Assembly: GCA_902575375.1 (NCBI GenBank)
Contig: CACGRD010000004.1
Location: 375 to 64,374 of the forward strand
Source: an uncultured Alphaproteobacteria bacterium
Lineage (GTDB): Bacteria; Pseudomonadota; Alphaproteobacteria; HIMB59; GCA-002718135
Direction of reading: 5' to 3'
Length of the DNA: 64,000 bases
In this document: piece by piece, positions 41,925 through 61,289 of the stretch
Layout: each line of letters opens with the position of its first letter
How positions within the stretch are numbered: the stretch's first letter is position 1
The notes under the pieces: model-generated
Seen by the model: only the letters and a program-made list of their open reading frames with translations
Database searches by the model: none
Told to the model about the DNA's origin: nothing
Program-made: the position numbers and the translations under genes

Positions 41925-42671
41925 ATGATAACTTCAAAAAAAATTAAAATATATTATCAGTTCGCAACTGCAAAAGGAAAAACACAGGGTGGTAGTGTAG
42001 AAATTAAAAAAAGAGAAAATTTCATATCAAAATATTTAGGTGAAGATACTTCTGTAAAACTTTCTGTTCCTAATAAAGGACCTGGTTCGATAGAAACAGA
42101 ATATGACGAGGCTATTGCTATTCCTAATGTAATCAAAGGAATCATCAACGCAGAAAAGAATAAATTTGATGTAGCAATTATTAGTTGTTTTTCAGATCCA
42201 GGTTTAACTGCTTGTAGAGAAAAGGTTTCCATTCCTGTGATTGGATCTGGAGAAAATTCAATACTTCTAGCTGGACAGTTAGGTAATCAAATCAGTATTT
42301 TATCTCCTTTATCAGAAAATAAAGAAACTTTTAAAAATAAAATTATGAGATTAGGTTTAGAAAAAAAATATTGTTCTACCAGATCTATAAATACAAAAGT
42401 ACTAAGCTTAGCTAAAGATAAAAAATCAACTTTAGATAAATTAATAAAAGCAGGTAAAAAAGCTGTTAATGAAGATGGCGCAGATATTCTTGTACTTGGA
42501 TGCATGAGTATGGCTTTTCATGATATTACTGAAGTTGTTGAAAAAAAATTAGGTGTACCTGTAATTAATCCTGTAAAAGCTAGTATCTTAATGGCAGAGT
42601 CATTGGTAAAAATGAAATTAGCTCATAGTAAATTAGCTTACCCTACTCCTGCAAAAAAAATAATTTATTAA
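41925..42671 (+). CDS. Asp/Glu/hydantoin racemase family protein (copy 1)
   Basis: GPGSIE; both catalytic Cys motifs, SCFSDPG and LGCMSM; PVINPV; HSKLAYP. Confidence 0.88.
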   Translation: MITSKKIKIYYQFATAKGKTQGGSVEIKKRENFISKYLGEDTSVKLSVPNKGPGSIETEYDEAIAIPNVIKGIINAEKNKFDVAIISCFSDPGLTACREKVSIPVIGSGENSILLAGQLGNQISILSPLSENKETFKNKIMRLGLEKKYCSTRSINTKVLSLAKDKKSTLDKLIKAGKKAVNEDGADILVLGCMSMAFHDITEVVEKKLGVPVINPVKASILMAESLVKMKLAHSKLAYPTPAKKIIY

Positions 42672-42716
42672 TAATAATCCCTTCTAAATAATACATATTC
42701 ATGTATAATATTTTTC

Positions 42717-43472
42717 ATGTCTATTGTTTATCTTGTACCGGGAAATATGACAGGAGGTCCTTATGGACTTAAAGAATTAAAAAGACGTGAAAAACTTTTA
42801 AAGGATTGGTCATTCAATCCATCAAAAGTAAAAGTTTATGATGTTCCAAATGGTGGAAGTTCAATTGAATCTTCATATGAAGAAATCGCCTCTATTATTC
42901 CAGCAGTTGATAGACTGTCTGAAATAACAAAATACGAAAACATAGATGCAGTCATATTAGGATGCTTTGGTGATCCTGGTCTAGATGTTTTTAGAGAAAT
43001 GTTTGATTTTCCAATCATTGGACCAGCTCAAACAAGTATGCATACAGCTTGTCAATTAGGTCATAAATTTTCAGTTATTACTATTTTTGACTCAATGCTA
43101 AACATGGCAGAAAAACAAGTGCATGAATACGGCCTTGATCATCATTTAGCGTCTGTAAGAGCTATTAATATTCCGGTTTTAGAATTGTTAAAAGATTTAG
43201 ATGTTACATATAAAAAAATGTCAAAATTAGCAGATAAAATTGTTAATGAAGATCGCGCGGATGCAATTTTACTAGGTTGTATGACAATGTCTTTTTCTGG
43301 GTTAGATAAAAAAATTGAAAAGAAGACAGGAATTCCTGTTTTAAATGCTGGAAGAACATCATTAAAATTTGCAGAAAGTCTATTATCAATGGATCTCAGT
43401 CACAGTAAGATAACATACCCATTTCCACCAAAGCTTGCAAAAACTCAGAAAGAAAAAAAGAAAAGAGCTTAA
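42717..43472 (+). CDS. Asp/Glu/hydantoin racemase family protein (copy 2)
   Basis: GSSIES, GCFGDPG, LGCMTM, PVLN, HSKITYP. Confidence 0.88.
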   Translation: MSIVYLVPGNMTGGPYGLKELKRREKLLKDWSFNPSKVKVYDVPNGGSSIESSYEEIASIIPAVDRLSEITKYENIDAVILGCFGDPGLDVFREMFDFPIIGPAQTSMHTACQLGHKFSVITIFDSMLNMAEKQVHEYGLDHHLASVRAINIPVLELLKDLDVTYKKMSKLADKIVNEDRADAILLGCMTMSFSGLDKKIEKKTGIPVLNAGRTSLKFAESLLSMDLSHSKITYPFPPKLAKTQKEKKKRA

Positions 43473-43475
43473 TTT

Positions 43476-44468
43476 CTAAGATGTATTATAACTACATCTA
43501 TCAACCCAATGCCCTGGCTTAGCTTCAACTAGACCCATTTTAATTTCGCCACCTTGACATTCATTATTATGTTTTGGACATCTGTCAGCAAATTTACAAC
43601 CTTTATACTCCCTAGTAGCATCAGGAATATTACCTAATATTGGAAGAGGGTCATGAGATTGATTAACATGAGGAACTGGAACAGCCTTAACTAATGCTTT
43701 AGTGTAGGGGTGTAGTGGATTATTAATAACGTCATGTGTGGGTCCATCCTCAACAATACTTCCAAGATACATAACTATCGTGCGTTCACAAACATATTTA
43801 ACCAAAGCTAAATCGTGAGAAATGTAAATCGCCGTAAAATTCATAGATGATTTAGCTTGGTTGAAAGCATTCAAAATACCCGCTCTTACACTAACATCAA
43901 GCATGGACACAGGCTCATCTGCTACTACAAATTTTGGATTAATGATTAGAGCTCTTGCAAGAACTATTCTTTGAAGTTGTCCTCCAGATAACTCATGAGG
44001 GTATTTATATAAATATTCATCTTTATTTTTTAACTTAACCAGATTCATTACATCAGTAATCATTGTTTCAAATTTGTTTGGATCAAAATTTAAAGCTTTC
44101 AATGGCTCTAATAAAATATCTTTTATCGTAAATCGTGGGTTTAGCGAGTCGTAAGGGTTTTGAAAAACAAACTGTAAGTTTCTTTTATATTTTATCAATT
44201 CATCGTTATCTTTAATTTTTGAAATATCTTTACCTTCAAATAAAATTTCACCACTTGTGGGATTTACAAGATTCAATATAAGTTTAGCCAAGGTTGTTTT
44301 TCCACAACCTGACTCTCCAACGATACCTACTGATTCGCCTTGTTGTATTTTGAAAGATACATCATCTACTGCTCTTACTTTAGGTTTTTTTCCAGAAAAT
44401 ATTTCTGAAATATTTCTTGATACATCATAATATTTAGAAACATTATTAAATTCTAAAACAGTACTCAT
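43476..44468 (-). CDS. Dpp/Opp-type ABC transporter ATP-binding subunit (DppF/OppF-like)
   Basis: GESGCGKTT, YPHELSGGQ.QR, VADEPVSMLD, HPYT, C-terminal GCKF..RC...C...C. Confidence 0.93.
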   Translation of the reverse strand: MSTVLEFNNVSKYYDVSRNISEIFSGKKPKVRAVDDVSFKIQQGESVGIVGESGCGKTTLAKLILNLVNPTSGEILFEGKDISKIKDNDELIKYKRNLQFVFQNPYDSLNPRFTIKDILLEPLKALNFDPNKFETMITDVMNLVKLKNKDEYLYKYPHELSGGQLQRIVLARALIINPKFVVADEPVSMLDVSVRAGILNAFNQAKSSMNFTAIYISHDLALVKYVCERTIVMYLGSIVEDGPTHDVINNPLHPYTKALVKAVPVPHVNQSHDPLPILGNIPDATREYKGCKFADRCPKHNNECQGGEIKMGLVEAKPGHWVDRCSYNTS

Positions 44469-44472
44469 AGGA

Positions 44473-45474
44473 TTATTCTTTAATCTCCCATGTTTCTAAT
44501 TTCTTTGACTCTTCAAGTAATTTTTTTTGATCACTAGTTCTCCAACAAATTGCCTCTCTATCTCTATTAACGTATCTGTCTGGTTTATCGTTACATTTGT
44601 TTATTTCAAAAGGACATCTAGCCTTAAATCTGCACCCTGTTGGAGGATTTATTAAATTAGGAGGAGATCCATTAATTGGAACTAGAAAATCATTTGTAGA
44701 ATGAAGATCAGGAAAAGCATTATTTAAACCCATAGTGTAAGGATGATAAGGTTCTTGTAAAATCGACTCAACACCACCCATTTCAACAATTTCACCAGCA
44801 TACATTACTGCAACTTTCTGACAAATATATGCAACTACCGAAACATCGTGTGTAACTAATATTATAGATAAATTTAATTTATGTTTTAATTCATTAAATA
44901 AATCTAAAATTTGTCTTTGCACAATTACATCTAATGCAGTAACTGGTTCATCAGCGATTACAATTTTTGGATCCAAAGCTAATGCCATCGCTATAGCAAC
45001 TCTTTGTTTCATACCTCCACTAAATTGATGAGGAAAATCTCGTAATCTATTTTTATCTATTCCCACTAAATTAAATAATTCTTCTGATCTTTCGTCTGCT
45101 TTATTTTTTGTATAACCACCTCTGATTACTAATATCTCTCTCATTTGATCTATAATTCTATAAACAGGATCGAGAGAATTCATTGCACTTTGAGGAATAA
45201 ATGCAATATCCTTCCACTTAAAATCTAAATCATTTATTTTTTTATCTGCATCTAATATTTTATTATTATTAAAATAAATTTGACCACTAGCTATTTTCGC
45301 GCTGTCAGGATTAACTCCCATTATACTTCTAGCTAATGTTGTTTTTCCACAACCTGACTCACCAACTATACCAAGTAATTCTCCTTGGTTAAGTTTTAAA
45401 GATACATTCTCAACTGCTTTTGCTACAAATTCTTTTCCAACATAATGAATGCTAAGATTTTTTATTTCTAACAT
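44473..45474 (-). CDS. Dpp/Opp-type ABC transporter ATP-binding subunit (DppD/OppD-like)
   Basis: GESGCGKTT, PHQFSGGMKQR, IADEPVTALD, HPYT, GCRF..RC. Confidence 0.93.
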   Translation of the reverse strand: MLEIKNLSIHYVGKEFVAKAVENVSLKLNQGELLGIVGESGCGKTTLARSIMGVNPDSAKIASGQIYFNNNKILDADKKINDLDFKWKDIAFIPQSAMNSLDPVYRIIDQMREILVIRGGYTKNKADERSEELFNLVGIDKNRLRDFPHQFSGGMKQRVAIAMALALDPKIVIADEPVTALDVIVQRQILDLFNELKHKLNLSIILVTHDVSVVAYICQKVAVMYAGEIVEMGGVESILQEPYHPYTMGLNNAFPDLHSTNDFLVPINGSPPNLINPPTGCRFKARCPFEINKCNDKPDRYVNRDREAICWRTSDQKKLLEESKKLETWEIKE

Positions 45475-45476
45475 TT

Positions 45477-46328
45477 TTATTTTTTTATTTTTGGAAACAA
45501 AATTTCTTCATAACCTCTACTTATGAAAAAACCTGCTACAACCATTAAAACTATACAAATACCTGGTGGAATAAACCAGATATAAGCTCCTAAAGAAAGA
45601 GCTTGTGAACTATAAGCATCTTGAAGCATATAGCCCCATGATATAACATCTGATGGACCAAAACCTAAAAAACTTACACTGGCCTCAGTTAGAATTGCCC
45701 AACCAATAGCAATTGATCCATATAAAAAAGACAGAGGTAAAATATTTGGAGCTATATGTAAAAATATTATTCTAAAATTAGAGCATCCTGATACTTTGGC
45801 AGATTCAATATAACCTCTTTCTCTTAATGTAAGAACTTGGCTTCTGATTATTCTTCCTGCATTTGGCCATAATAATAAACCAATTGCTATAACTACATTC
45901 CATGAACTTGGTCCTAAAAAAGCAGCCAACACAATTACAAATGGTAGAAAAGGCAAACCAAGAGCTATGTCTGCAAGTCTCATAATTAAATTATCAATCC
46001 AACCACCGTAAAACCCAGAAATTAATCCTACAATTGTTCCTAATATAGCAACAGCTAGTGCTGCACTTAAACCAACTGCTAATGCATTTCTTGAGCCGTA
46101 AATGAGTTGAGAAAAAATATCTCTTCCATTTGATGTTGTTCCAAGAAAATATTCCCAGCTTGGGGGTAAGTTCCTTGCCAAACCACTACTTGAAAAATTT
46201 ATTCTTAGTGGATCATTAGTTGCAATAAGATCTGCAAATATTGCTACAAGAATAAAAAATAAATATATGCAAACTCCAATGGTAGCATAGTTATTTTCTT
46301 TAAATATTTTATAAATTTCAGCTATCAT
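45477..46328 (-). CDS. ABC permease (DppC/OppC-like)
   Basis: LGTT..GRDIFSQL..G.R, EAA loop YIESAKVSG, HIAPN, EASVSFLG. Confidence 0.92.
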   Translation of the reverse strand: MIAEIYKIFKENNYATIGVCIYLFFILVAIFADLIATNDPLRINFSSSGLARNLPPSWEYFLGTTSNGRDIFSQLIYGSRNALAVGLSAALAVAILGTIVGLISGFYGGWIDNLIMRLADIALGLPFLPFVIVLAAFLGPSSWNVVIAIGLLLWPNAGRIIRSQVLTLRERGYIESAKVSGCSNFRIIFLHIAPNILPLSFLYGSIAIGWAILTEASVSFLGFGPSDVISWGYMLQDAYSSQALSLGAYIWFIPPGICIVLMVVAGFFISRGYEEILFPKIKK

Positions 46329-46329
46329 T

Positions 46330-47316
46330 TTAATTTTTAGTTTTATAACTCACTCTTGGATCTAAAAATAGATACAACAAGTCTGCTAAAAAATTCATTA
46401 ATATTAGAATTGCTGTTAAAAAAATAAATGCACCTTGCGCAAGAGGATAATCACTTGATGATACAGCAAAAACTAATAATCTTCCCAAACCTGGCCAGCT
46501 GAATACTGTTTCAATAACAACATTTCCTCCAAAAGCAAAGCCAACACCAAGTGTAAAAGCAGTTGCAACTGGCAAAAGTGCGTTTCTGGCCGCATGATAA
46601 ATAACTATCCGCCAGCTAGATAAGCCTTTCATTTTTGACATTGTAACAAAGTCTTCTTGCATAACTTCAAGCATATTCGATCGCATTAATAACAAGGGTA
46701 AACCTTGAAGATAGAGTGCTAATACCAATGAAGGTAAAATAAGGTGATAGTAAAAATGTAAACTTGTTAATTTTGATAAAGTGGTTTCGTAAATTACACC
46801 TGCGGCACTAGTTCCGCCTGAAGGAAAAATATCAAGTTGAAAACTAAAAAAAGCTAATGCAATCATACCTAACCAAAATTCAGGCGCAGATCTTGTTGTT
46901 AAAACTATTGGTATCGAAAATCCCTCAATAAATGTTGCTCTTTTCCAAGCAAGATAAGCTCCAGCAATAACTCCAAAAATATAAGCAATAACCAATGAAA
47001 ATAATGTTAAAATTATTGAATTTGGTAAAGCTTCAATAATCATGTTAATTACAGGTTTGTTATAGGTAAAGGAAAGACCAAAATCTCCTTTTAAAGTATT
47101 AACAATAAATAATGTATATTGTTCAAATAAAGATTTATCTAAACCAAATCGCTTAACTAATAAATCATGTTGTTCATCAGTAAATGTAGTACCGATAAAA
47201 GCTGTAAGAGGCGAACCTGGCATAAGTCTGAACATAAAGAAAATGATAGTAGCTACTATCCATAGTACAAAAAGCATGTACAAAAATCTTCTTACGATAG
47301 ACCAAAAGTCAAACAT
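46330..47316 (-). CDS. ABC permease (DppB/OppB-like)
   Basis: FRLMPG.P, GDFGLS, PEFWLG, DFVTMSKMKGL, HAARNA, ETVFSWPGLG, LDPRV. Confidence 0.92.
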   Translation of the reverse strand: MFDFWSIVRRFLYMLFVLWIVATIIFFMFRLMPGSPLTAFIGTTFTDEQHDLLVKRFGLDKSLFEQYTLFIVNTLKGDFGLSFTYNKPVINMIIEALPNSIILTLFSLVIAYIFGVIAGAYLAWKRATFIEGFSIPIVLTTRSAPEFWLGMIALAFFSFQLDIFPSGGTSAAGVIYETTLSKLTSLHFYYHLILPSLVLALYLQGLPLLLMRSNMLEVMQEDFVTMSKMKGLSSWRIVIYHAARNALLPVATAFTLGVGFAFGGNVVIETVFSWPGLGRLLVFAVSSSDYPLAQGAFIFLTAILILMNFLADLLYLFLDPRVSYKTKN

Positions 47317-47337
47317 TCGCCTCTATACAATATTTAA

Positions 47338-49002
47338 TTAATGTTTCTCTGACACTCCTTCCGGATAGTGCAGTCTTCCATTTTTAACAGTATATCCAGC
47401 ATCTTCTAGAATTTTCTTAGCTAAGTCAATTCCAGTTTCGAACTCAGTAATACCATCTTTGTGGTAAAAACTTAGTGCTGGAGATATATGCGAACCTGCT
47501 TTAACAGCATTACCTGCCCAAGCTGCATTCACCATAACATCTCTATCAATGGCAAGAGAAACTGCTCTTCTGAAATTTACATCATCAAAAGGCGCTCTTC
47601 TATGATTCATAGCCATATACTGAAAGCCAACATCAACAGATTTTACAAGTGTAATATCTCCATCTTCTTCAACAATATTAGCAAGCACTGCTGGGTCACC
47701 TTTATAATCGGTTAAGAAGTTTACTTCACCCTTTCTAAACATACCTAAAGCAGCTTCAACATTTGGAATTTCTTTCATTATCCATCTATTAATTTTAGGT
47801 GGATTGAAATGACCAGAATTAGCTTCTAAGATTACTTGTTCTCTTTGTCTCCAATCAACAAACTTGAAAGGACCAGAGCCAATTCTTTTTTCCTCAATTA
47901 TTGTTTCAGCATTATTACCTGTACCCTTCAAAGAATCAATTATTGGACCATAATAATGTTTAGGAACCAAATTGATTTTTGCTAGAGTTGATGTAAGGAA
48001 AGCAGCATTTGAAGACTTAAGATTAAATCTAACTACATTGTTTCCCATATCTTCCATTGAATCGATATTCTTTACAAATGGAGAATACATTGGAACCATT
48101 TCAGCATCCATTGGAGCTTCAAAAGAGAAAATTACATCTTCTGTAGTTACAGGTTGTCCATCATGCCAGCTCATACCTGATCTAAGAGTAACATCAATTG
48201 TTTGCTCGTTCACCCAATTGAAAGACTCTGCAGCCCATGGTTGAGGAGTTCCATTAGGACCAATTCTAAGTAATCTGTCCCAAACAATTTCAGTAATCCA
48301 TGAATCAGTACCACCTGAAATAAAGAATGGATTGATTGCTTGGATTTCGTCTAAACTCTGAGCTACTAAATCATTGTTTCCATTTATTGGTTCAATGTTT
48401 AGATACGTCCAGATATTTTTAATACCAAGACCAGCTTGCTCAATAGCACTACCATCCTTAAATTGCGTATTATCATAAGCAAAGTTCAATAATGGATGAA
48501 CTAAATATGCATTTGCTGCATCATCAGCTAAAAGTTGTTGAGCTTGGTCAACAATTTGTTTCCTAGCATCAGGATCCATAGTTACTCTTTGTTTTTCTGC
48601 AAGTTCATCATAAGCAGAACTTACATAACCAATAAAGTTATATCCCTTTTCTGCAGTTGATGAATGAAAAAGATTGTAAGTAAATTCATCAGGATCACTT
48701 CTTTCAGGACGACTAACCATCTGCCACATCGTTAAATCCCAAGTATCTTCATCAAGTCTTTTATACCAAACTTGATCAGCCATTTGTGGCCAAGGTACTG
48801 CATTTACAGTAATATCTAAGCCTAGCTCATTTAATGTTTGTGCTATTATTAAAGCCGCAGTATGCGGAGCTGGTCCAGCAGCTTGCTCTCTCGCCCAAAG
48901 TTTCATACTTCTTACTTCTTCTGCTGATGCAGAACTAACTAAAAAAGGTAAAATCAATGAGGAAATAAGACCAGCAAAAATAGCTATTAGTTTTTTTCGC
49001 AT
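47338..49002 (-). CDS. Family-5 (DppA/OppA-like) solute-binding protein, apparently circularly permuted
   Basis: GGAGG 5 nt upstream of ATG 49002; Sec signal ending SASA|EE. The family-5 signature (PQPWAAESF...TLRSGMSWHDGQPVTTEDVIFSF) lies mid-protein, while canonical C-terminal motifs lie at the N-terminus. Confidence 0.9.
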   Translation of the reverse strand: MRKKLIAIFAGLISSLILPFLVSSASAEEVRSMKLWAREQAAGPAPHTAALIIAQTLNELGLDITVNAVPWPQMADQVWYKRLDEDTWDLTMWQMVSRPERSDPDEFTYNLFHSSTAEKGYNFIGYVSSAYDELAEKQRVTMDPDARKQIVDQAQQLLADDAANAYLVHPLLNFAYDNTQFKDGSAIEQAGLGIKNIWTYLNIEPINGNNDLVAQSLDEIQAINPFFISGGTDSWITEIVWDRLLRIGPNGTPQPWAAESFNWVNEQTIDVTLRSGMSWHDGQPVTTEDVIFSFEAPMDAEMVPMYSPFVKNIDSMEDMGNNVVRFNLKSSNAAFLTSTLAKINLVPKHYYGPIIDSLKGTGNNAETIIEEKRIGSGPFKFVDWRQREQVILEANSGHFNPPKINRWIMKEIPNVEAALGMFRKGEVNFLTDYKGDPAVLANIVEEDGDITLVKSVDVGFQYMAMNHRRAPFDDVNFRRAVSLAIDRDVMVNAAWAGNAVKAGSHISPALSFYHKDGITEFETGIDLAKKILEDAGYTVKNGRLHYPEGVSEKH

Positions 49003-49116
49003 ATATACCTCCAAAAAAAATTATAATTAATTGTATGCATATTAGAGTACATACTTAAAGTCTTTTAATGTCAATGTTTGAGTGATTAAAAATCAACGCT
49101 AATATTCAATTTAGTA

Positions 49117-50109
49117 TTAGATTTTAATATTTGATTTTCCTATTTTCTTTGGATTTTCAATAAAATCATGCGCTTTGTACGCGCGGTCAAAACTAAACGT
49201 TTCTATGTTTGGATGAATAATTTTATTTTTTTCCATTAGTTTGTTTATATAATTTCCAATCATAGAAATATTTTTATTATTTTGAAGAAAAGCTTGTACA
49301 ATTTTAATATTTATACCTTTTGGGGCATAGCTATAATAATCAAATTTAGGCTTAATTATACTCGACGAAGAATAAGAACAAACAATACCATTATTTTTTA
49401 TAATTTTTGGAATTAGATTTATATTTTTACCAAAATCAACTTCTATAACCCTATCAACTAATAGGCCCTTAGTGAATTCATTAACAATATTGATAATTTC
49501 AATTTCGGAAAGTTTTTTATAATTTAAAACTAAATCAGCGCCTAAATTTTTACAGATATTTTTTTTAGCAGCATTACTAACTGTAGTAATCACTTTCAAT
49601 CCATTTAATTTTGCAAATTGTATTGCATAATTACTGACTGCTCCAGCTCCACCTGAAATAAATACAAATTTTTCACTATATTTTTTTTCTGAAAAAACTG
49701 AATAGTATGCAGTGGCTACTGGCACGCCTAGTATTGAAGATTTTGAAGCGGAGATATTATTTGGAGTGAATATCAATTTATTTTTATTTAATTTATAATA
49801 TTGAGCACAAGTTCCATATTGTTGGTTCTTTGAACCTCCGCAAATCCAAAATTTTTTTCCAATTAAATTTTTATAATTAGGATTCCCTACTTCTACTACT
49901 TTTCCAGATCCATCCGTATGGGGTATAATAAATTCTTGATTAAGTTTTTTTGATATCCATCCAGATCGTTGCTTAGTGTCAGCAGGATTAACACTTGAAT
50001 ACAAAATTTCCAAAACAACTTCATCTTTTTTGACTTGAGGATCATCAAATGTTCCAGATTTCAAAACTTTTTTTGCTTCTCCAGTTTGCTCATAATAAAT
50101 TGCTTTCAT
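49117..50109 (-). CDS. NADPH:quinone reductase / zeta-crystallin-like MDR
   Basis: MKAIYY..TG, VNPADTK.RSG, IPHTDGSG, ISGGAGAVS.YAIQFAK, EVDFG. Confidence 0.85.
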   Translation of the reverse strand: MKAIYYEQTGEAKKVLKSGTFDDPQVKKDEVVLEILYSSVNPADTKQRSGWISKKLNQEFIIPHTDGSGKVVEVGNPNYKNLIGKKFWICGGSKNQQYGTCAQYYKLNKNKLIFTPNNISASKSSILGVPVATAYYSVFSEKKYSEKFVFISGGAGAVSNYAIQFAKLNGLKVITTVSNAAKKNICKNLGADLVLNYKKLSEIEIINIVNEFTKGLLVDRVIEVDFGKNINLIPKIIKNNGIVCSYSSSSIIKPKFDYYSYAPKGINIKIVQAFLQNNKNISMIGNYINKLMEKNKIIHPNIETFSFDRAYKAHDFIENPKKIGKSNIKI

Positions 50110-50145
50110 TTTATAATGATATAAAATAATTTGATCTTTATCAAC

Positions 50146-50206
50146 GATGACAAATTATCATCACTAAAATGATAAATTTCTACTTCATTTAATTTTATAA
50201 AGTAGA
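50146..50206. promoter_or_regulatory. Cluster of inverted repeats in the divergent promoter region (candidate operators)
   Basis: GATGA-N7-TCATC (50146-50162), TTATCAT-N7-ATGATAA (50155-50175), TCTACTT-N14-AAGTAGA (50179-50206). Confidence 0.4.
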
Positions 50207-50218
50207 TATAGAATAATT

Positions 50219-51925
50219 ATGGATGAAATACTAAAACAAGTTAATGTAGACAACGCTTGGGATCTTGTCGAAGTTTATTCAAAAATGGCAAGATGGAAAC
50301 CAGATGATGTTAATAAATCATGTGATGAAATTACTAACAGACTTGATAAGTTTGGAGTCGAATATAAAGTATATAATCCTGAGCTCTACTTAAGCATACC
50401 TTATACAGCAAGTGTTAAATTAAGTAGCGGAGATACACTTCATGCTAAACCACCAGCTTATAGTATAAATTGTGAAGAAGGTATAACTGCTAAATTGCAT
50501 TATGTTCCAGCCCATTTTAAAAAAGATATAGAAAATCTATTTGATAAATCTCAAGATAAAGAAGCATCAACACCAGATAAAGTAAGAGGAAAAATAATTA
50601 TTTCTGAAGGTTTTGCTTTTCCAGGTAAAATTCAAGATTTTGAAAAAGCAGGTGCTGTTGGCGTAATAGCTGTAAACCCTGGAGTTGATATACATTGGGG
50701 AATTTGCACATCTATATGGGGAATGCCGGAATACGATAATATAGAAAACAAACCTAATATTCCTGTTGTTGCCGTAAATTTAGATGATGGAAAAAAGCTG
50801 ATAGAATTATCAAAAAATAATGAAGAGGCTACTCTATTTACCAAGCTTGAGGAAGGATGGTTTAATCAAAAAATACCTGAGGTAACTATTAAAAGTGATA
50901 ACAACAGCAAAGATTTCATTTTATTACATGGACACTATGATTCTTGGGACGTAGGTGTTGGAGATAATGCAACTGGAGATGCAACAATGCTAGAAATAGC
51001 TAGATTGCTTCAAGAGAATAAAAGTAAGCTTAATAGATCAGTAAAAATAGTTTGGTGGCCTGGACATTCTACAGGAAGATATGCGGGCAGTACATGGTAT
51101 GCAGATAATTTTGGAATTGAACTAAGCAATAATTGTGTAGCACAAATTAATTGTGATTCACCTGGATGTAGGTGGGCTGATACATTTGATCATTTATCAG
51201 TAATGACTGAAGCTGAGGACTATGTTCACAAAATTATTAAAGGTGTAGCTAATATCACACCTGTATGTGAAAGACCTCACAGAGCTGGTGATTATTCATT
51301 TAATAATATCGGAATTAGTAGCTTTTTTATGTTGAGCTCTACAATGACTCCTGAACTTAGAAAAGAAAAGGGTTATTATGCCGTAGGAGGTTGTGGAGGT
51401 AATATAGCATGGCATACGGAAAATGATATATTAGAAATTGCTGATAAAAAGAATTTAGAAAGAGATATTAAAGTTTATGCAGCAAGTATAATTGAACTAA
51501 GCACATGCAAATATTTACCTTTCAATTGGCAGGCTTCAGCCAATGAATTTGAAAAAGTTTTAAATAATTATCAAAAAAATTGTGGTGACAATTTTGATTT
51601 AAGTGAAGCTATTTCTGCTGCAGATGATTTTAAAAATAAGATTAAAAGTTTTTATGAAAAAATTAATAATGACAGTCTAGATCCTGGAAAAGCTAATGCT
51701 ATAATTATGAAACTAGCACGAATTTTAGTCCCTCTTAATTACGCTAGAAACCCAAGATTTTCTCATGACCCTGCTGTACCAATTCCGCAATTACCTGTCT
51801 TATCTCTATGTGATGAGTTCGCTGAAGCTCCTAAAGATAAATATGGATTTATAAAAAATCAACTTGTTAGAGGTAGAAATAGAGTTGTAGACGCTTTAAA
51901 CGAAGCTGGTAATTTACTAGAATAA
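50219..51925 (+). CDS. M28 family metallohydrolase with PA domain and non-canonical active site
   Basis: HGHYDSW..GVGDNATG; WPGHSTG in place of WxAEExG; INCDSPG; WHTEND. Confidence 0.85.
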   Translation: MDEILKQVNVDNAWDLVEVYSKMARWKPDDVNKSCDEITNRLDKFGVEYKVYNPELYLSIPYTASVKLSSGDTLHAKPPAYSINCEEGITAKLHYVPAHFKKDIENLFDKSQDKEASTPDKVRGKIIISEGFAFPGKIQDFEKAGAVGVIAVNPGVDIHWGICTSIWGMPEYDNIENKPNIPVVAVNLDDGKKLIELSKNNEEATLFTKLEEGWFNQKIPEVTIKSDNNSKDFILLHGHYDSWDVGVGDNATGDATMLEIARLLQENKSKLNRSVKIVWWPGHSTGRYAGSTWYADNFGIELSNNCVAQINCDSPGCRWADTFDHLSVMTEAEDYVHKIIKGVANITPVCERPHRAGDYSFNNIGISSFFMLSSTMTPELRKEKGYYAVGGCGGNIAWHTENDILEIADKKNLERDIKVYAASIIELSTCKYLPFNWQASANEFEKVLNNYQKNCGDNFDLSEAISAADDFKNKIKSFYEKINNDSLDPGKANAIIMKLARILVPLNYARNPRFSHDPAVPIPQLPVLSLCDEFAEAPKDKYGFIKNQLVRGRNRVVDALNEAGNLLE

Positions 51926-51936
51926 TTTTTCTTTTA

Positions 51937-52803
51937 ATGCCATCAAAATTCATTGGATTGGCATTTATTTTAATTTCAATTTTTTTTGCCTCTTTAATGA
52001 TCATTTTAATTAAATTGTTATCTGAGGATATGAATATTTTTAGTATTTTATTCTACAGAGGTTTTTTTGGATTTGTTTTATCATTATTTTTTTTTATTAA
52101 AATTGACTTTAGAGAATTAAAAACAAAAAAAATTCATATTCATTTGATTCGATCAATAATTAATGCGCTTGCTTTATATTTTTGGTTTACATCCCTAACA
52201 TTATCTTCTCTGGCAGATGTTTCAGCAATAGGTAATTCAGCTCCAATCTTTGCTACTTTTTTAGCAACATTATTTATGAAAGAAAAAGTTGTACTTTTAA
52301 GAATTATTGCAATTTTTTTAGGTTTTATAGGAGTAATTATAATTTTAGATCCAAGCTTTAATGATATTGAAAAAGGTCACTACTATGCATTAATGTCTGC
52401 TATTTTGTGGGGTTTCCTCGTGATTTATCTAAAAAACTTAAGTAAAACTGAAAATTATTTCTCAGTTATTTTTTATTTTCAGTTATTTTTATTTATTTTT
52501 TTTGGCACAGTTTTTTTTAGTTACATAGTGATACCAAATACATTTAATTTTGTTTTAATATTACTTATGGCTTTATTTGGTAATATATCTCAAATTTCTT
52601 ATTTCCAAGCATTGAAATATAAAGATGTAAGTTTTATCTCTCCTTTCGAATATCTACGATTTATATTTATTACAATTTTTGGAATTCTATTTTTTAGTGA
52701 ATTTCCAGAAATCTCTACTTATATTGGCTCTTTAATTATTTTTGTAGGAATTTTAATTATTAATATTAATATAAAAAAAATTTCAAATAGTTTTAAATTA
52801 TGA
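51937..52803 (+). CDS. DMT/EamA family transporter
   Basis: 10 TM; ILFYRG, HLIRS, APIFATFLA...KEKV, PFEYL, FFSEFP. Confidence 0.88.
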   Translation: MPSKFIGLAFILISIFFASLMIILIKLLSEDMNIFSILFYRGFFGFVLSLFFFIKIDFRELKTKKIHIHLIRSIINALALYFWFTSLTLSSLADVSAIGNSAPIFATFLATLFMKEKVVLLRIIAIFLGFIGVIIILDPSFNDIEKGHYYALMSAILWGFLVIYLKNLSKTENYFSVIFYFQLFLFIFFGTVFFSYIVIPNTFNFVLILLMALFGNISQISYFQALKYKDVSFISPFEYLRFIFITIFGILFFSEFPEISTYIGSLIIFVGILIININIKKISNSFKL

Positions 52804-53801
52804 AATCAAAAATTAAATTTAATTTTAGAAAAAAAATATGGAGATTAAAAGAAGAGTTTAAAACTTCCAATAGAAGAAATGACACCAACCAAGTTGTAAC
52901 GATTGAAGCAATTATAAAAAAAGACAATATTATTGGTAGAGGAGAAAGTACTCCTTACTATCGATATGGAGAAGATATCAATAATTCTTTATATGAATTA
53001 TCAAAAATTAAGACATTTATTGAAAATGGAATTACAAGAAAAAAATTACAAGACTATATGAAACCTTCTAGTGCTAGATGTGCAATTGATTGTGCGCTTT
53101 GGGATATAGAAGCAAAAGAAAAAAATAAAAGAATCTGGGATATACTAAAAATAGAAAGAAAGCCTCAACCTCTAAAAACTCTAGAAAGTTATGGAATTAG
53201 GCCATTAAACATACTTAAAAAAAATATAATAGATGATAATTATCCTGAATTTATAAAAGTTAAAGCCAATAGAAATAATGTATTAGATATAGTCAAAACT
53301 GTAAACCATACCTCAAAAAACTCTAAATTAATAATCGACTTTAATGAAAGTTTGAAACCTAGTGACATAATACCGTTAAGTAAAAAATTAAAAAAAAATA
53401 ATGTAGTATTACTAGAACAACCATTACATGAAAAACAAGATGAAATTTTATCTACATTTAAACATGAAATTCCAATAGGAGCTGATGAGTCATGTCATAC
53501 AAGTGAGGATGTTCTTAAGATAAAAAACAAATACGACTTCATTATTATTAAACCGGGTAAATCAGGAGGTTTAACAGAAGCTTTGAAAGTAAATAAAATA
53601 GCAAAAAAACATAACCTAAAAACTATGATTGTGTGTATGTTTGGTTCTTCTCTTGCGGTGGCTCCTGCATATGTTTTGGCATTAGATGGAGCTACATATA
53701 ATAATATTGAAGTACCAAAAATAATGTTAGATGACAGAAAATTTAAAATTGAGTGTCACGATCAACTAATTTATGCTCCAGATAAGAAATTATGGGGTTA
53801 A
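52800..53801 (+). CDS. Enolase-superfamily dipeptide epimerase / N-acyl-amino-acid racemase (AEE/DgcA-like, divergent)
   Basis: GRGESTPY.RYGE, ARCAIDCALWD, KVK; metal ligands IDFNE, EQP, ADES; K..KSGGLTEA; CMFGSSLA.APA. Confidence 0.87.
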   Translation: MKSKIKFNFRKKIWRLKEEFKTSNRRNDTNQVVTIEAIIKKDNIIGRGESTPYYRYGEDINNSLYELSKIKTFIENGITRKKLQDYMKPSSARCAIDCALWDIEAKEKNKRIWDILKIERKPQPLKTLESYGIRPLNILKKNIIDDNYPEFIKVKANRNNVLDIVKTVNHTSKNSKLIIDFNESLKPSDIIPLSKKLKKNNVVLLEQPLHEKQDEILSTFKHEIPIGADESCHTSEDVLKIKNKYDFIIIKPGKSGGLTEALKVNKIAKKHNLKTMIVCMFGSSLAVAPAYVLALDGATYNNIEVPKIMLDDRKFKIECHDQLIYAPDKKLWG

Positions 53802-55018
53802 GAAAAAGAGTTTTTGATTATTTCTCCGTCCTTAATTATTAACATTAAATTTTTATCATTATCGTTAAAGACATTTATATCGTTTATGGGATTTTTTTTG
53901 AGAACAATTAAATCAGCAAATGCCTCTTTCTTTATTGTTCCAATTTTGTTTCTCATATTTAAAATTTCAGCATTAATTGAAGTTGCTGATCTTAATACAT
54001 CAATATTTTTTTGATAATAACTTCTTAAAACCAATTCGTTACTTTGTTTTTTTAAGTATTCTCTACCATGAAGATCAGACCCCAAACCTAATTTAACGCC
54101 AGCTTTAAAACAATTCTGAATAGCTTTTGATCTAAGTTTATTTACTTTTTTTACTTTCTGTAAAGAAGCAGAGGACAAGCCTAATCTTTTAGAATTTTTT
54201 TCAATCAGATGTCCTGCTGATAAAGTTGGTACAACATAACTACTTGTTTTAGCAATCTGTTTAGCTGTCTCAAAAGTTATTAGACTACCATGTTCAATTG
54301 ATCTTATACCAAGTTTTAAACACCTTTTTGCTCCTTCATCGGTATGACAATGTGCCATTACATAGCTATCTCTTCTATTTGCCTCTTCAACACAAATTTT
54401 TATTTCTTTATCACTAAAGTGATTCATATTAATAGGAGCTAAATTTGTTGATACTCCGCCTGTTATAATTAATTTGATATGAGTTGCTCCTTTTCTAAAT
54501 TCTTCTCTGACTACTTTTCGCATTTTATCAGGACTATCGACAACTTGAGTAATATTTCCATCATATTCACAAACACAATTATCTATAAAATTATTCTTTC
54601 GCATATCACCATGTCCACCAGTTTGTGTAATAGCTTTTCCAGGATAGAAAAATCTTGGTCCCTGAAATAACCTTTCATCTAAAGCCATCTTTATTCCAAT
54701 GTCTCCTCCTCCTGCATCTCTTACAGTCGTAAAACCTCTAAAAAGAGTATCATTCAAAATATTATGAGCATGAAACGCAATATAATTTTTTGGATATTTA
54801 TCTGAAGAGTAGAAATCGTAATTTGGTGTGTTTGCATGAAAATGTGCATCAATTAACCCAGGCATTACAAAATAATTTTTAAGATTAATTTTATTTGTAT
54901 CTTTTGATGATTTTAAATTAACGCCTATATTTTTAATTTTGTTATTCTTAATAAGTATAGAATTTTGATTTATTATTTTTTCACCATCAAAAATTTTTGC
55001 GTTTTGTAAAAGAATCAT
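53798..55018 (-). CDS. Amidohydrolase-superfamily metallo-dipeptidase/carboxypeptidase (COG1228, prolidase-like)
   Basis: PGLIDAHFH, GFTTVRDAGG, QTGGHGD, IKL..TGGV, MAHCH, SIEHG, GSD; probable ATG at 55018. Confidence 0.87.
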   Translation of the reverse strand: MILLQNAKIFDGEKIINQNSILIKNNKIKNIGVNLKSSKDTNKINLKNYFVMPGLIDAHFHANTPNYDFYSSDKYPKNYIAFHAHNILNDTLFRGFTTVRDAGGGDIGIKMALDERLFQGPRFFYPGKAITQTGGHGDMRKNNFIDNCVCEYDGNITQVVDSPDKMRKVVREEFRKGATHIKLIITGGVSTNLAPINMNHFSDKEIKICVEEANRRDSYVMAHCHTDEGAKRCLKLGIRSIEHGSLITFETAKQIAKTSSYVVPTLSAGHLIEKNSKRLGLSSASLQKVKKVNKLRSKAIQNCFKAGVKLGLGSDLHGREYLKKQSNELVLRSYYQKNIDVLRSATSINAEILNMRNKIGTIKKEAFADLIVLKKNPINDINVFNDNDKNLMLIIKDGEIIKNSFS

Positions 55019-55019
55019 A

Positions 55020-56201
55020 TCATTGAGTTGCAATTGAAATTGCTAATTCACATGAATCTTCATACTCTTTAATATCTAGGTATTCATCTAAACTGTGAGG
55101 ATTGTAATGACCATTTCCAAAAGTTATAGTTGGAATACCATTTCTAATCAGCCAATTTGCATCAAGACCACCGTTTACAGCTACAGTTTTCGAATTTATA
55201 CCGATTTTATTTGCTGATTCTTTTGCGATTTTAATTACTTCTAAATTATCATCCAGTTTAAAAGGAAAGTAATCTAAGCTTTTTTTAAATTTAATTTGAG
55301 CTTTTTCATTTTGCGAGTTTTTGACTATTTCAGATGCTGCAATAAAATTGTTTTCATATTGGTTTGTGATTTCACTAATAAAATCTTGATCCATGCTCCT
55401 AGACTCACCGTTAATCTTCACATAATCAGTAACTTGATTAGTTGAAGAACCAGCGCAATTTCCATCATGATCACCATAATAACCAATATTAGAAGTTCCT
55501 TTTAATCCATTTTTTTCTACTAATCCAAACCATCCATCTTCATACGTTTTACTAAGAGCAATAGAAGCAATTATTGAAGATGAAATACCTTTATCAGGTG
55601 CGACACCTGCATGTGATCCTTTCCCGATAATTTCTACTGACCATCTTTCAGCTCCAACTGCAGATGTGATAATTTCATATGGTGATGATCCATCAGTATT
55701 GAAGCCAATTTCAGGTGATCCAAGATCTTTTTTATCGACATTTCTAGCGCCCCAAAGCCCACTTTCTTCTCTAACAGTAAATAAGCATGTTAAGGGTGTA
55801 TACTCTACATTATTCTGAAACAAAAATTTTAAAAGATTAACTAAACAAGAAACACCACCTCTATTATCAGCTCCTAAAGCCGTATCATTTTTAGCAATAA
55901 TTTTTCCATTATTAATTATTGGTTCAGCTCCCTTACATAAAGATACTGTATCAAGATGTGTTGAAAAAAGTTTCCTCTTACCTGGCTTAGTGCCGGGAAG
56001 TTTTACAATTAAATTTCCTGTCTCAGTAAATAAAGGAATTTTTTTATTAGCCTCATCAAAAAAAATATATTCTTCAGGCACTCCATATTTAATTAATTTA
56101 TCTTTCACGCTTAAAGCGATATTTTTTTCATATCCAGTAACACCTTCAATAGATAGAAATTCTATAACGTTTTTTATGTTTTCACTTAGATTACTGGTCA
56201 T
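55020..56201 (-). CDS. M20 peptidase (peptidase T-like)
   Basis: THLDTV, LGADNRGG, FTVREESG, GKGSHAG.APDKG, GGLDAN, PHSLDE. Confidence 0.87.
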   Translation of the reverse strand: MTSNLSENIKNVIEFLSIEGVTGYEKNIALSVKDKLIKYGVPEEYIFFDEANKKIPLFTETGNLIVKLPGTKPGKRKLFSTHLDTVSLCKGAEPIINNGKIIAKNDTALGADNRGGVSCLVNLLKFLFQNNVEYTPLTCLFTVREESGLWGARNVDKKDLGSPEIGFNTDGSSPYEIITSAVGAERWSVEIIGKGSHAGVAPDKGISSSIIASIALSKTYEDGWFGLVEKNGLKGTSNIGYYGDHDGNCAGSSTNQVTDYVKINGESRSMDQDFISEITNQYENNFIAASEIVKNSQNEKAQIKFKKSLDYFPFKLDDNLEVIKIAKESANKIGINSKTVAVNGGLDANWLIRNGIPTITFGNGHYNPHSLDEYLDIKEYEDSCELAISIATQ

Positions 56202-58758: not shown

Positions 58759-59910
58759 ATGATGAGTTTTCCAAAAGAAGAATATCTCAAGAGATTAGAT
58801 AATATTCATAAAAAATTAGAAAATGAAAATATAGATGCAATTGTTATTACTTCTCCTGCAAATTTTAGATACTTTTCCGGATTAGATAGTAACTTTTGGG
58901 AAAGCCCTACAAGACCTTGGTTTTTAATAATTTCAAAAAATGGGAAAATCAAAGCCTTAGTCCCATCTATAGGTTTATCGGCAATTGAAAGTACGTTTAT
59001 TAAAGATATAGAAGTATGGCAATCACCTAATCCAAAAGATGAAGGTACGTCATTATTAAAGAAAATCATTAAAACATTTCCAAAAAATTCAAATATTGGT
59101 TTTGAATTAGGTATGGAAACATACTTAAGAATGAGTATTGAAGAATTTTTAAAAATTAAAAAAGATTTACAAGAATATAATTTTATTGATTCTACTAATA
59201 TTGTTTGGAGTCTTAGAAAAATTAAATCTGATCTCGAAATCAAAAATATTGAAAAAGTTTGTTCTATTACAAGTAAAGTTTTCAATAATTTAATTAACAC
59301 AATAAGTTTAGGTATGAGTGAAAGAGAAATTGCAAAAATATTTAAAAAAGATCTTATTAATAATGGGGTTGATTACATAATGTATCTTTCATGTGCATCA
59401 GGAATAAATGGTTATAATCAAATAATTTGTAATCCAAGTGAAAAAAAAATAGGTGACGGTGATATTCTAATTATTGATACTGGTTCTACCTTAAATGGAT
59501 ATTACTGTGATTTTGATAGAAATTTTGGATTTGGAAATATCAATCAAAAATCTTTAGATGCCTATGACAAATTATGGAATGCTACAGAAAAAACTTTAGA
59601 AATAATTAAGCCAGGTATCAGCTGTAAAGAAGTTTATGAATCACTAAGTAAAAATTTGTTTTCAAGTAATGTTAAAAGTAGTGTTGGAAGAATGGGGCAT
59701 GGTTTTGGTCTTCAACTTACAGAACCGCCAAGTATTATGATTGGTGATAATACAATTTTAGAAAAAAATATGATCTTAGCCTTAGAGCCTTCAATCGAAA
59801 TTGAAAATGATTTGATGTTGGTTCATGAAGAAAATATTTTAATTACTCAAAATGGTAATAGATTATTGAGCTCAAGAACTCCTAAAGAATTGCCTGTAAT
59901 TAATGTTTAA
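58759..59910 (+). CDS. M24 Xaa-Pro peptidase family protein (creatinase N-domain + M24)
   Basis: NFRYFSG, LRKIKS..EI; metal ligands IDTG, CDFDRN, GHG.G, LEP, HEE. Confidence 0.88.
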   Translation: MMSFPKEEYLKRLDNIHKKLENENIDAIVITSPANFRYFSGLDSNFWESPTRPWFLIISKNGKIKALVPSIGLSAIESTFIKDIEVWQSPNPKDEGTSLLKKIIKTFPKNSNIGFELGMETYLRMSIEEFLKIKKDLQEYNFIDSTNIVWSLRKIKSDLEIKNIEKVCSITSKVFNNLINTISLGMSEREIAKIFKKDLINNGVDYIMYLSCASGINGYNQIICNPSEKKIGDGDILIIDTGSTLNGYYCDFDRNFGFGNINQKSLDAYDKLWNATEKTLEIIKPGISCKEVYESLSKNLFSSNVKSSVGRMGHGFGLQLTEPPSIMIGDNTILEKNMILALEPSIEIENDLMLVHEENILITQNGNRLLSSRTPKELPVINV

Positions 59911-59933: not shown

Positions 59934-61289
59934 TTAGTATTTGGAAAAATTTTCCATTATTGCAGCAGCATATTTTATACCTTTTATATAGTTTTCAACT
60001 TTAATATTTTCGTCTGGCGCATGAAGATTTGCACCGGGATTAGCAAAACCGGTTAATACACATGGCATCCAAACATGTTTCAATATAGTTCCTTCTGCTG
60101 AAACACCATTTACAACAGGTTTTTCACCAAATACTTCCTCTGCAGCTTTAATGATAGCTTGAGATATATCTTCTTTAACAGAAATTTTGTAAGGAGGCTC
60201 TGCTGCATCGAAAGCTTTTACCTCAAGATGACCAAACCCATGTTCAATCAAATGATTTTTTAGTTTTTTTATACATTTTTGTGGATTCATATTTGGAAGT
60301 AAACGAAAATCTATTCGAACTTTCGCTTCGCTTGGTACGATTGTTTTGTGTCCAGGACCTGTGTATCCTGAAATCATTCCTTGAATATTTGCAGTTGGCT
60401 CATATGTTCTGGCTTTAATAGCCTCAACTCCATCTCTATTTAAAACAAAATTCTCAATACCAAATTCTGATTTTAATGCTGATAAATCTACCCTTTCATT
60501 TTTTTCATTTAGTAAATTTATTTCTTCCTCTCCTAATTCGTATAATCCTTCGTACCAATCCTTAATTAATATTTTTCTATCTCTTGTCATAATAGTTGAT
60601 AAGGCATGAACTAATTCCCATGGAGGACTAGGTACAAGTGGAAAATTAAGAGAGTGAATATCTTTTTTTCCTCCTCTTGCGATTAATTCCACAAATAAAA
60701 CTGATTTTAAACCAAGCTCTACCTCCGGCACTTTAGCAAATTCATCAACTGTTCCATCTAGGCAGTGCATTCCATCAGCCTCTAACAGTTTTTTATTTTT
60801 TTCAACCCACGGACCAAGATGAACGGAACCTATCTCTTCTTCACCTTCATAGAAAAATTTTAAATTTAAAGGAACTTCACCTCTTACTTTTAAAAATGCT
60901 TTTGCTGCTTTATTAAAAGCTAATAAACCACCTTTGTTATCTGTAGCACCTCTTCCATAAATTACATTATCAACTAAGGCGCCAGACCATGGACCTCCGT
61001 GTGACCACGCTTCAATAGGTTCTGGTGGCTGAACATCATAATGAGAATAACAAAACATTGTTTTTTTTGAATTTGAAGATTTTAAATGTCCAAAGACTAA
61101 AGGAGGACCATCTGGTATCTCATGTAATTCAGCGGGTAAGCCATCCTTGTGCATTTTCTCAACAACATAATTTGCACATTCTTCTAAACCTAATTTTTGA
61201 GCAGATACTGAAGGCTTTCTTATAAATTCTTGCAAATCTTTTATATATTCGTCAACATTATCATCTATATATTTATATATATCTTTCAT
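59934..61289 (-). CDS. M20 dipeptidase (CNDP/Dug1-like)
   Basis: SHYDVQP, YGRGATDNKG, EGEEEIGS, DIHS, GYTGPG.KTIVP, DFRL.P, HAPDE. Confidence 0.9.
   Translation of the reverse strand: MKDIYKYIDDNVDEYIKDLQEFIRKPSVSAQKLGLEECANYVVEKMHKDGLPAELHEIPDGPPLVFGHLKSSNSKKTMFCYSHYDVQPPEPIEAWSHGGPWSGALVDNVIYGRGATDNKGGLLAFNKAAKAFLKVRGEVPLNLKFFYEGEEEIGSVHLGPWVEKNKKLLEADGMHCLDGTVDEFAKVPEVELGLKSVLFVELIARGGKKDIHSLNFPLVPSPPWELVHALSTIMTRDRKILIKDWYEGLYELGEEEINLLNEKNERVDLSALKSEFGIENFVLNRDGVEAIKARTYEPTANIQGMISGYTGPGHKTIVPSEAKVRIDFRLLPNMNPQKCIKKLKNHLIEHGFGHLEVKAFDAAEPPYKISVKEDISQAIIKAAEEVFGEKPVVNGVSAEGTILKHVWMPCVLTGFANPGANLHAPDENIKVENYIKGIKYAAAIMENFSKY

Follow-up and report, generated by a model that had tools for sequence, protein, structure and literature searches.

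A natural circular permutant of the family-5 solute-binding proteins in an accessory cassette of a marine alphaproteobacterium

Introduction

How can a solute-binding protein hold all the structural blocks of its family and yet present them in the wrong order, and does the order matter for what the protein does? The question is raised by a gene at 47338-49002 (minus strand) of the window, by which we mean the whole stretch of 64,000 nucleotides analyzed here (contig CACGRD010000004.1 of assembly GCA_902575375.1). The host is a marine alphaproteobacterium of low GC content. Few binding proteins have been studied as thoroughly as the DppA/OppA-type receptors, yet annotation with Pfam and NCBIfam hides a permuted topology. 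A first-pass annotation of the same DNA, made from the letters and open reading frames only, had proposed that the protein is a natural circular permutation of a DppA/OppA-type receptor and that a distinct class of ligand may go with it.

The gene and its parts

The gene is an uninterrupted open reading frame of 554 codons, with its ATG at 49002 and its stop at 47338-47340, and a Shine-Dalgarno sequence, GGAGG, can be read from the sequence at 49008-49012 (minus strand), 5 nt upstream of the start. An uninterrupted frame with its own ribosome-binding site had been claimed, and both are where they should be. The product, of 554 amino acids, is a circularly permuted family-5 (cluster C) solute-binding protein, and four parts can be told apart (all on the minus strand). 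Residues 1-27 (48922-49002) form a predicted Sec signal peptide (MRKK, a hydrophobic core, and ASA before E), judged by eye from the basic-hydrophobic-AxA pattern and hydropathy; there is no lipobox, and pLDDT is <50 for residues 1-24 in the AlphaFold model.

Residues 28-205 (48388-48921) correspond to the canonical C-terminal third (AppA 358-520, DppA ∼342-507), which now comes first. This block carries R38, Q40, R98, E100, R101, and D103-P104, and finishes with the old C-terminal strand NIWTYLNIEP. A short linker, residues 206-209 (48376-48387; placed by clade-wide spacing), leads from the old C-terminus to the old N-terminus. Residues 210-554 (47341-48375) are the canonical N-terminal two thirds (AppA 18-359, DppA 1-342), and they finish with the EDAGY helix and then a G-L-H-Y-P hairpin. 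All the motifs quoted in the first-pass annotation are present in the translation in the order it gave, and the canonical start, which it put at about residue 211 (nt ∼48372), agrees with D211, whose codon begins at nt 48372.

Is the block order really swapped?

The best PDB match is Bacillus subtilis AppA (1xoc), which phmmer finds in two out-of-order pieces: residues 210-542 match AppA 22-349 (i-E 1e-31), and residues 48-175 match AppA 375-494 (i-E 2e-6). Similarly, PF00496 is matched with 219.2 bits (gathering cut-off 32.4) in two stretches, model positions 1-285 and 296-366 being met in reverse order. These are the two out-of-order matches that had been predicted for HMMER or a pairwise alignment. 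Each of the five further family-5 genes in this genome matches PF00496 in a single piece. Taken alone, residues 29-205 match only C-terminal family-5 parts (AppA 375-494 and DppA 406-478), and as a 65-row profile they match DppA 356-479. A search of the ESM Atlas returned PF00496 clusters only.

The window protein is thus a member of PF00496, yet it is not DppA or OppA proper. The canonical N-to-C block order of those proteins is absent, and the scores with the DppA model (NF043070; 97.2 of 1005 bits) and the OppA model (NF011684; 83.2 of 947) are both below the equivalog cut-off.

The predicted structure leads to the same order. An AlphaFold model built with 85 homologues (pLDDT 90.5, pTM 0.87) was compared with solved structures through two separate structural alignments, one per block. 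With VIA-align, model residues 203-551 align to AppA 18-359 (Z 25.1, rmsd 6.1, 333 aligned), and residues 210-539 fit open DppA (1dpe, 1-342) with an rmsd of 2.5. A separate model of residues 29-205, hereafter segment A, is of modest quality (pLDDT 69); its residues 29-188 align to AppA 358-520 (Z 8.2, rmsd 6.0, 146 aligned) and the segment also aligns to DppA 342-507 (Z 7.4), Z values of 7-8 lying in a range that can mean a common arrangement. Foldseek also supports this placement of the segment.

The first-pass annotation had named a colinear full-length alignment to DppA/OppA as evidence that would speak against it. None appeared by sequence (among the 60 listed of 95 matched PDB sequences), by Foldseek (among the rows listed, with TMq ≤0.51 and ≤390 columns), or by VIA-align (in 50 rows, with a model range of ∼203-552). 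Among the PDB chains matched, there is also no solved structure with the permuted order. Since the two separate matches, AppA 18-359 and 358-520, together cover the reference once, the cut can be placed near AppA 358/359, which is DppA 342-345.

The model predicts a complete three-domain cluster C fold, nearest to open forms. In canonical relatives such as P0248, the last helix of the block is followed by a surface hairpin, and it is here that the cut falls, with LDKLGIKDVDGDGWRELPNG before the cut and TDLVLK after it in P0248; in the permuted protein, the C-terminal end is that hairpin (GYTVKNGRLHYPEG) and the N-terminal start is the next strand. The new termini had been placed directly after the EAGY helix. 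They are near it, but 17 more residues (TVKNGRLHYPEGVSEKH) follow EDAGY as a predicted beta-hairpin in the AlphaFold model, and because the chain continues through this hairpin we place the cut after it. At the other end of the rearrangement, the old C-terminal strand (to residue 205) is joined to the old first strand (from residue 210) by about four residues. From the alignments and the DppA domain layout, the new termini are predicted to lie in the C-lobe, outside both hinge strands, which would be kept, and the old N- and C-termini are predicted neighbors in the N-lobe.

Could it be an assembly artefact?

An assembly chimera, or a single-cell amplification artefact, could place the two halves of a gene in a false order. 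With 55 contigs and 66% completeness, the genome is fragmented, and several contigs from three runs stop near 48300-48390; the listed contigs of the three runs other than X3 break in or near the region, none of them bridging the junction. Of the four runs compared with the window, X3 has one contig, number 21, that by itself covers 47066-49247 and so the whole gene, gap-free and across the junction, near which no joint is listed. A chimeric join near 48370-48400, the second observation that had been named as adverse, is therefore not what the reads' contigs give. In addition, copies 98.6-99.7% identical are found in four other assemblies (one partial), and the same block order recurs at ∼50% identity in complete genomes and plasmids. 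On the strength of the bridging contig, the near-identical copies, and the homologues in complete replicons, which refute it already by having the same order, we reject a chimera and give it next to no probability.

In the RNA runs, contig coverage is fuller over the binding-protein gene than over its neighbors, and two contigs end at 49003; these runs were found using this gene, and their contigs cannot show transcription level or start.

With sequence, predicted fold, hundreds of homologues, and an independent contig across the junction in support, we regard it as practically certain that the window gene is a natural circular permutant of a family-5 solute-binding protein.

How widespread and how old is the permutation?

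The same order is seen in 120 of the 120 best homologues listed. At 50% clustering, the best 150 representatives comprise 136 permuted, 2 canonical, and 12 one-segment proteins. In GTDB, 417 stretches are related to the query, complete genomes among them; 80 loci were kept, and those with both segments were checked for block order. Among plasmids, 3110 records match, of which 55 are covered to at least 80% in one place, and the haloarchaeal plasmid members include HVO_RS00095 of Haloferax volcanii pHV3. Permuted members could be named from Alphaproteobacteria, Trueperaceae, Bacillota, Tissierellia, Bathyarchaeia, Methylomirabilia, and haloarchaea.

For the trees, the two segments were aligned separately and the alignments then joined; 503 sequences were classed by order, and 270 (138 permuted, 132 canonical) were kept once near-copies had been thinned and partial rows dropped. 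All but four of the permuted rows (134/138) form one clade (FastTree 0.89), and a 20-row sample of this clade has an SH-aLRT of 100 both with LG+G4 and with a mixture model (quick searches). Single-segment trees are poorly resolved, the clade being absent with segment A and having a support of 0.315 with the second block, segment B. Counted from P205 to N224, the spacing across the junction is 19 residues in 100 of the 133 clade members and within 17-22 in every one; beyond the last helix, the tail has a median length of 15 residues. This conservation of junction spacing and tail length fits one origin.

Four archaeal permuted proteins (P0348, P0355, P0371, and P0372) fall apart from the clade in free trees; they are cut at the same place and have a C-terminal anchor. 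One joint clade is not rejected by an AU test (p-AU 0.577; the constrained tree is 5.56 log units higher), so we do not claim convergence, that is, independent origins with the same cut. The permutation may have arisen once, long ago, in an ancestor of the bacterial and archaeal clade. In one further permuted protein, P0336, the cut is at a different place, close to the first hinge.

The nearest canonical group in the trees is made up of archaeal-type proteins, but most of the canonical rows stem from a single search that started from P0248, so that sampling of the nearest canonical relatives is uneven. A tandem-duplicated precursor was looked for among 7991 candidates: none is doubled, and the three longer matches, two of them of confirmed canonical order, are fusions to other domains, which makes for weak evidence. 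Our literature searches, which reached few subscription journals, found no description of permutation in family-5 binding proteins, although an earlier mention is possible. Passages of PMC2588589, PMC2238938, and PMC2265533 do not concern permutation of family-5 proteins, and the same searches found nothing on HVO_B0021 (a locus tag that we inferred), on DppA Asp408/Arg355, or on the neighbor enzymes.

Did the permutation spread because it is useful? Moving the termini, and the lipid or membrane tether along with them, from the N-lobe to the C-lobe might have altered docking, opening dynamics, or export and so have driven the spread of the clade. Several observations are in keeping with this: junction and cut are conserved across a very diverse clade, the second archaeal group has the identical cut place, the N-terminus is lipobox-like in 59 and Tat-like in 61 of 134 members (crude pattern), and in canonical archaeal-type neighbors the old C-terminus often carries a membrane anchor. 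However, a conserved order is expected without selection once the termini have moved, the AU test above does not split the two groups into independent origins, and the permeases are ordinary DppB/C types. Moreover, the window protein has no tether, so that moved termini cannot matter for anchoring here. We judge an adaptive permutation improbable, and think it very likely that the capture-and-dock mechanism is unchanged; the importer mechanism itself is probably ordinary. The permutation would then be largely neutral, leaving capture and docking intact and changing only the lobe to which a signal peptide or lipid anchor is tied.

What surrounds the gene?

The permuted gene leads a dppB-C-D-F-type operon on the minus strand, followed by genes for a DppB-type permease (46330-47316; PF00528 and PF19300), a DppC-type permease (45477-46328; PF00528 and PF12911), a DppD-type ATPase (44473-45474), and a DppF-type ATPase (43476-44468), both ATPases with PF00005 and PF08352. 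A comparison of the permease scoop loop proved too gappy to use: the E41 column has Asp in 70 of ∼80 rows, Arg is not among the five commonest letters of the R42 column, and the window gene reads Gly.

The operon is part of an accessory cassette of 13 genes and 14.3 kb (41925-56201) between a GST gene and a LysE-like gene. On one side are two plus-strand genes with PF01177, for a hydantoin/allantoin-racemase-like protein (41925-42671; 3qvj, E 1e-24) and a second hydantoin-racemase-like protein (42717-43472). On the other side are, in order, a Zn-ADH-fold NAD(P)H quinone-oxidoreductase-like protein (49117-50109, minus strand), a PA-domain M28 peptidase without a signal peptide (50219-51925, plus), an EamA-family transporter (51937-52803, plus; PF00892), an enolase-superfamily racemase/epimerase with the N-acetyl-D-Glu racemase DgcA as nearest model (52800-53801, plus; 289 bits, cut-off 400), an amidohydrolase nearest to the Xaa-Pro dipeptidase model (53798-55033, minus; 229 bits, cut-off 500), and an M20 peptidase-T-like protein (55020-56201, minus; 178 bits, cut-off 274). 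The cassette therefore holds three racemase/epimerase genes and three amide hydrolases (M28, M20, and amidohydrolase). No neighbor enzyme reaches a specific NCBIfam cut-off, and so their substrates are guesses. The M28 protein reads WWPGHSTGRY where solved M28 enzymes read (G/A)AEELGL, and GHS replaces AEE in 88 of 93 copies.

The cassette is optional. In three of three relatives (90-96% complete) with a contig spanning the site, the GST and LysE-like genes are adjacent; in a fourth, the right part of the cassette is present as far as the contig end, and in two further genomes of the genus the M28 end is at a contig edge. Across the 105 genomes of the genus, the majority of them incomplete, 7 have the binding protein and 92 the flanking block (E <1e-30).

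To see which genes travel with the permuted gene, neighbors were counted in 54 related loci, each 19 kb or longer, with the six closest loci left out; the 54 are kin, not independent. A composition-filtered clustering of ORFs gives counts that are lower bounds, since it misses real genes, such as those for the window's quinone-oxidoreductase, EamA, and DgcA-like proteins. In the 54 loci, the partners are M28 (52 of 54), IclR (46), racemase (39), oxidoreductase (38), M20 (29), HyuA (25), and HyuB (25). The IclR and oxidoreductase labels are presumptive, resting on likeness to annotated loci and on motifs. The HyuA/HyuB and IclR genes of the relatives are absent from the window cassette.

Seven distant permuted loci were also read for neighbor genes. 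These include D-aminoacylases, dipeptide epimerases, and DUF1611 at one locus; the creatininase family with M20 or M81; an amidohydrolase with Rid; and a gamma-glutamylcyclotransferase. The H. volcanii and Natrinema members are exceptions, adjoining sugar-catabolic or unrelated genes.

What does the protein bind?

According to PMC12136057, R383 and D436 of DppA (mature 355 and 408) bind the termini of the dipeptide. In a profile alignment at ∼25% identity, E100 aligns with D408 and Q40 with R355, the R355 column lying in a gappy region with R38 only two residues away. The Arg355/Asp408 pair of DppA is thus not kept, and E100, Q40, R38, R98, and R101 are each invariant in 85 of 85 close homologues. 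In the wider clade these pocket columns vary, except for R101 (123/134).

One proposal is that the permutation is real and the protein is a general di- or oligopeptide receptor, with racemases and peptidases that tidy up whatever mixture of peptides comes in. The amine site retains an acid, PepT-like and Xaa-Pro-dipeptidase-like genes are in the cassette, and the best PDB match, AppA, is an oligopeptide receptor. Set against this, the column of the carboxylate-binding Arg of DppA is Gln in all 85, the many invariant polar pocket residues suggest a narrow ligand, and the DppA and OppA model scores are low (97 of 1005 and 83 of 947). In addition, three racemase/epimerase genes, joined in relatives by lactamase-type HyuA/B, travel along, and the genome has five other family-5 receptors. 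We consider a general peptide receptor unlikely, though it is the alternative to take most seriously.

Cluster C proteins bind many classes of ligand, and the cargo could instead be an opine, a sugar acid, a metal chelate, or an aminopolycarboxylate. Sialic-acid, nickel, opine, and mannoside receptors score almost like peptide receptors, several Arg residues would suit a polyacid, and 38 of the 54 loci have a linked quinone-oxidoreductase-like gene. The tightest link, however, is to an amide hydrolase (M28, 52 of 54), and no recurring sugar or metal genes were seen in the close subfamily by the composition-filtered clustering. Such a ligand seems to us more improbable still than selection for the new termini.

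With E100 at the amine site, Gln at the carboxylate-Arg column, and R38, R98, and R101 invariant, the likely cargo is an amide bearing at least one acidic group rather than a plain L,L-dipeptide. As to its class, pocket and neighbors lean somewhat toward a small D-configured, N-blocked, or cyclic amino-acid amide. The idea of a distinct ligand class thus survives for the close subfamily, whose invariant pocket residues are its own and whose catabolic neighborhood is fixed; it does not extend to the wider clade, where the pocket columns vary and the neighbors share only a loose amide/D-amino-acid theme, with exceptions.

Our reading as a whole, to which we give a probability of roughly 0.6, is an old permutation, an ordinary mechanism, and a DppBCDF-type importer of D-, N-blocked, or cyclic amino-acid amides. 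The permuted protein would be the periplasmic capture subunit of the adjacent importer, closing its two lobes around the ligand in the ordinary way and then docking. After uptake, the racemases may invert the D center of the cargo, and the M28, M20, and amidohydrolase enzymes may then release L-amino acids, a step in which ATP-dependent HyuA/HyuB lactamases might also join in relatives. A bolder suggestion, which we hold only tentatively and think rather doubtful, is that the old permuted cluster C branch as such, in bacteria and archaea alike, is an uptake arm for D-, N-acylated, and ring-closed amino-acid amides, and that in this streamlined marine host the cassette, with its His-Ser M28 and three racemases, may be an undescribed pathway by which peptides that are damaged or contain D-amino acids are recovered from dissolved organic matter.

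Why is this of use beyond one locus? With a large clade of natural permutants and its canonical neighbors at hand, one can ask cleanly how permutations come about and whether they alter function; the clade also marks a tolerated cut site for the engineering of sensors from cluster C proteins. The cassette, for its part, offers a specific starting point for finding the transporter and enzymes with which ocean bacteria may handle D- or blocked amino-acid compounds.

Comparison with known systems

The systems to compare first are AppA (1xoc), DppA (1dpe, 1dpp, and 8z1y/8z1z), and OppA. The window protein has all their structural blocks at 23-26% identity, and it shares with them the three-domain fold and a signal peptide, both predicted, an operon with two permeases and two ATPases, and an acid at the amine-binding position. 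It differs in that the block order is swapped, the old termini are fused, and the DppA Arg355 column is Gln; the permuted proteins also have a two-residue insertion and an R-x-D-P signature (R in 123/134) in the binding loop.

Nearest in the trees among canonical proteins are the archaeal-type P0248 and P0253 and their relatives (Bathyarchaeia, Hodarchaeota, and Sulfolobales; uncharacterized), a closeness to the permuted clade that partly reflects sampling. They share the hairpin that is cut in the permuted clade, as well as the terminal N-x-W-(S/T)-x-x-x-L-x-P strand that forms its junction, but have canonical order and often a C-terminal Thr/Pro linker with a membrane anchor.

Agrobacterium AgaA and MoaA (6hlx and 6tfq; agropinic acid, a lactam opine, and mannopinic acid) have the same fold (Z 24.0 and 23.1), but canonical order, ∼20% identity to the window protein, and other neighbors. 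We take the AgaA-type family-5 importer to be tied to HyuA/B-type lactam hydrolysis through AgaF/AgaG.

Hydantoin utilization clusters combine the ATP-dependent hydantoinase HyuA/HyuB with a racemase and an M20 amidohydrolase, and DgcN/DgcA form a D-glutamate route. The same enzyme superfamilies recur beside the close permuted subfamily. Here, though, the M20 genes are dipeptidase-, CPG2-, or PepT-like rather than carbamoylase-like, no enzyme passes a specific cut-off, the window cassette is without a DgcN-type gene, and the constant partner is an M28 protein with the GHS motif.

Where does the cassette sit, and has it moved?

The 14.3-kb accessory cassette (window 41925-56201) occupies a fixed site, with a GST gene on one side and a LysE-like gene on the other, and the same site is present without the cassette in three near-complete relatives. 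When the window is compared with L001, a locus from another genome that carries a relative of the permuted binding protein, the cassette is 97-99% identical, whereas identity of the genes to its left falls to 84-95%. This contrast hints that the cassette may have been exchanged recently.

What do the hydrolase and racemase genes look like?

The cassette opens with a tandem pair of hydantoin-racemase-like paralogues (window 41925-42671 and 42717-43472), each containing both Cys motifs (CFxDPG and LGCM); most relatives have one such gene per locus, as against two here. Motif comparison of the PA-domain M28 peptidase, which has no signal peptide (window 50219-51925, + strand), placed GHS where M28 peptidases usually have the catalytic Glu-Glu (AEE), as do 88 of the 93 copies in related loci. 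The HxD, DN, NCD, and WHT motifs are retained in this GHS type, and related loci often hold two to three M28 paralogues. The GHS type may represent an M28 subfamily with a different chemistry.

A short way beyond the cassette lie genes for an M24 peptidase (window 58759-59910, + strand) and an M20 dipeptidase-like protein (window 59934-61289, - strand). The latter belongs to NCBIfam groups PRK06446/PRK08201; these groups also include the M20 whose gene, in other bacteria, is linked to that of the permuted protein.

Is there RNA from the binding-protein gene?

Contigs from two RNA sequencing runs of different studies (X12 and X16) extend over window 47219-49003 and so take in the binding-protein gene. 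Their shared end at 49003, beside the start codon, is a weak hint only.

Which other family-5 proteins are permuted?

Four proteins of the comparison set (P0348, P0355, P0371, and P0372, including one named as Korarchaeota and one as Sulfolobales) are permuted at a cut identical to that of the window protein and carry a C-terminal Thr/Pro linker and membrane anchor. They make up a second permuted group, which need not have arisen separately. Another protein, P0336, has a different permutation site, its chain beginning near the first hinge; its family-5 part is joined in one chain with a CARDB-type domain and a membrane anchor.

A permuted member, HVO_RS00095 (L081:8743-10611), is also found on pHV3 of Haloferax volcanii, upstream of xylose-catabolism genes; this model archaeon offers a tractable test system.
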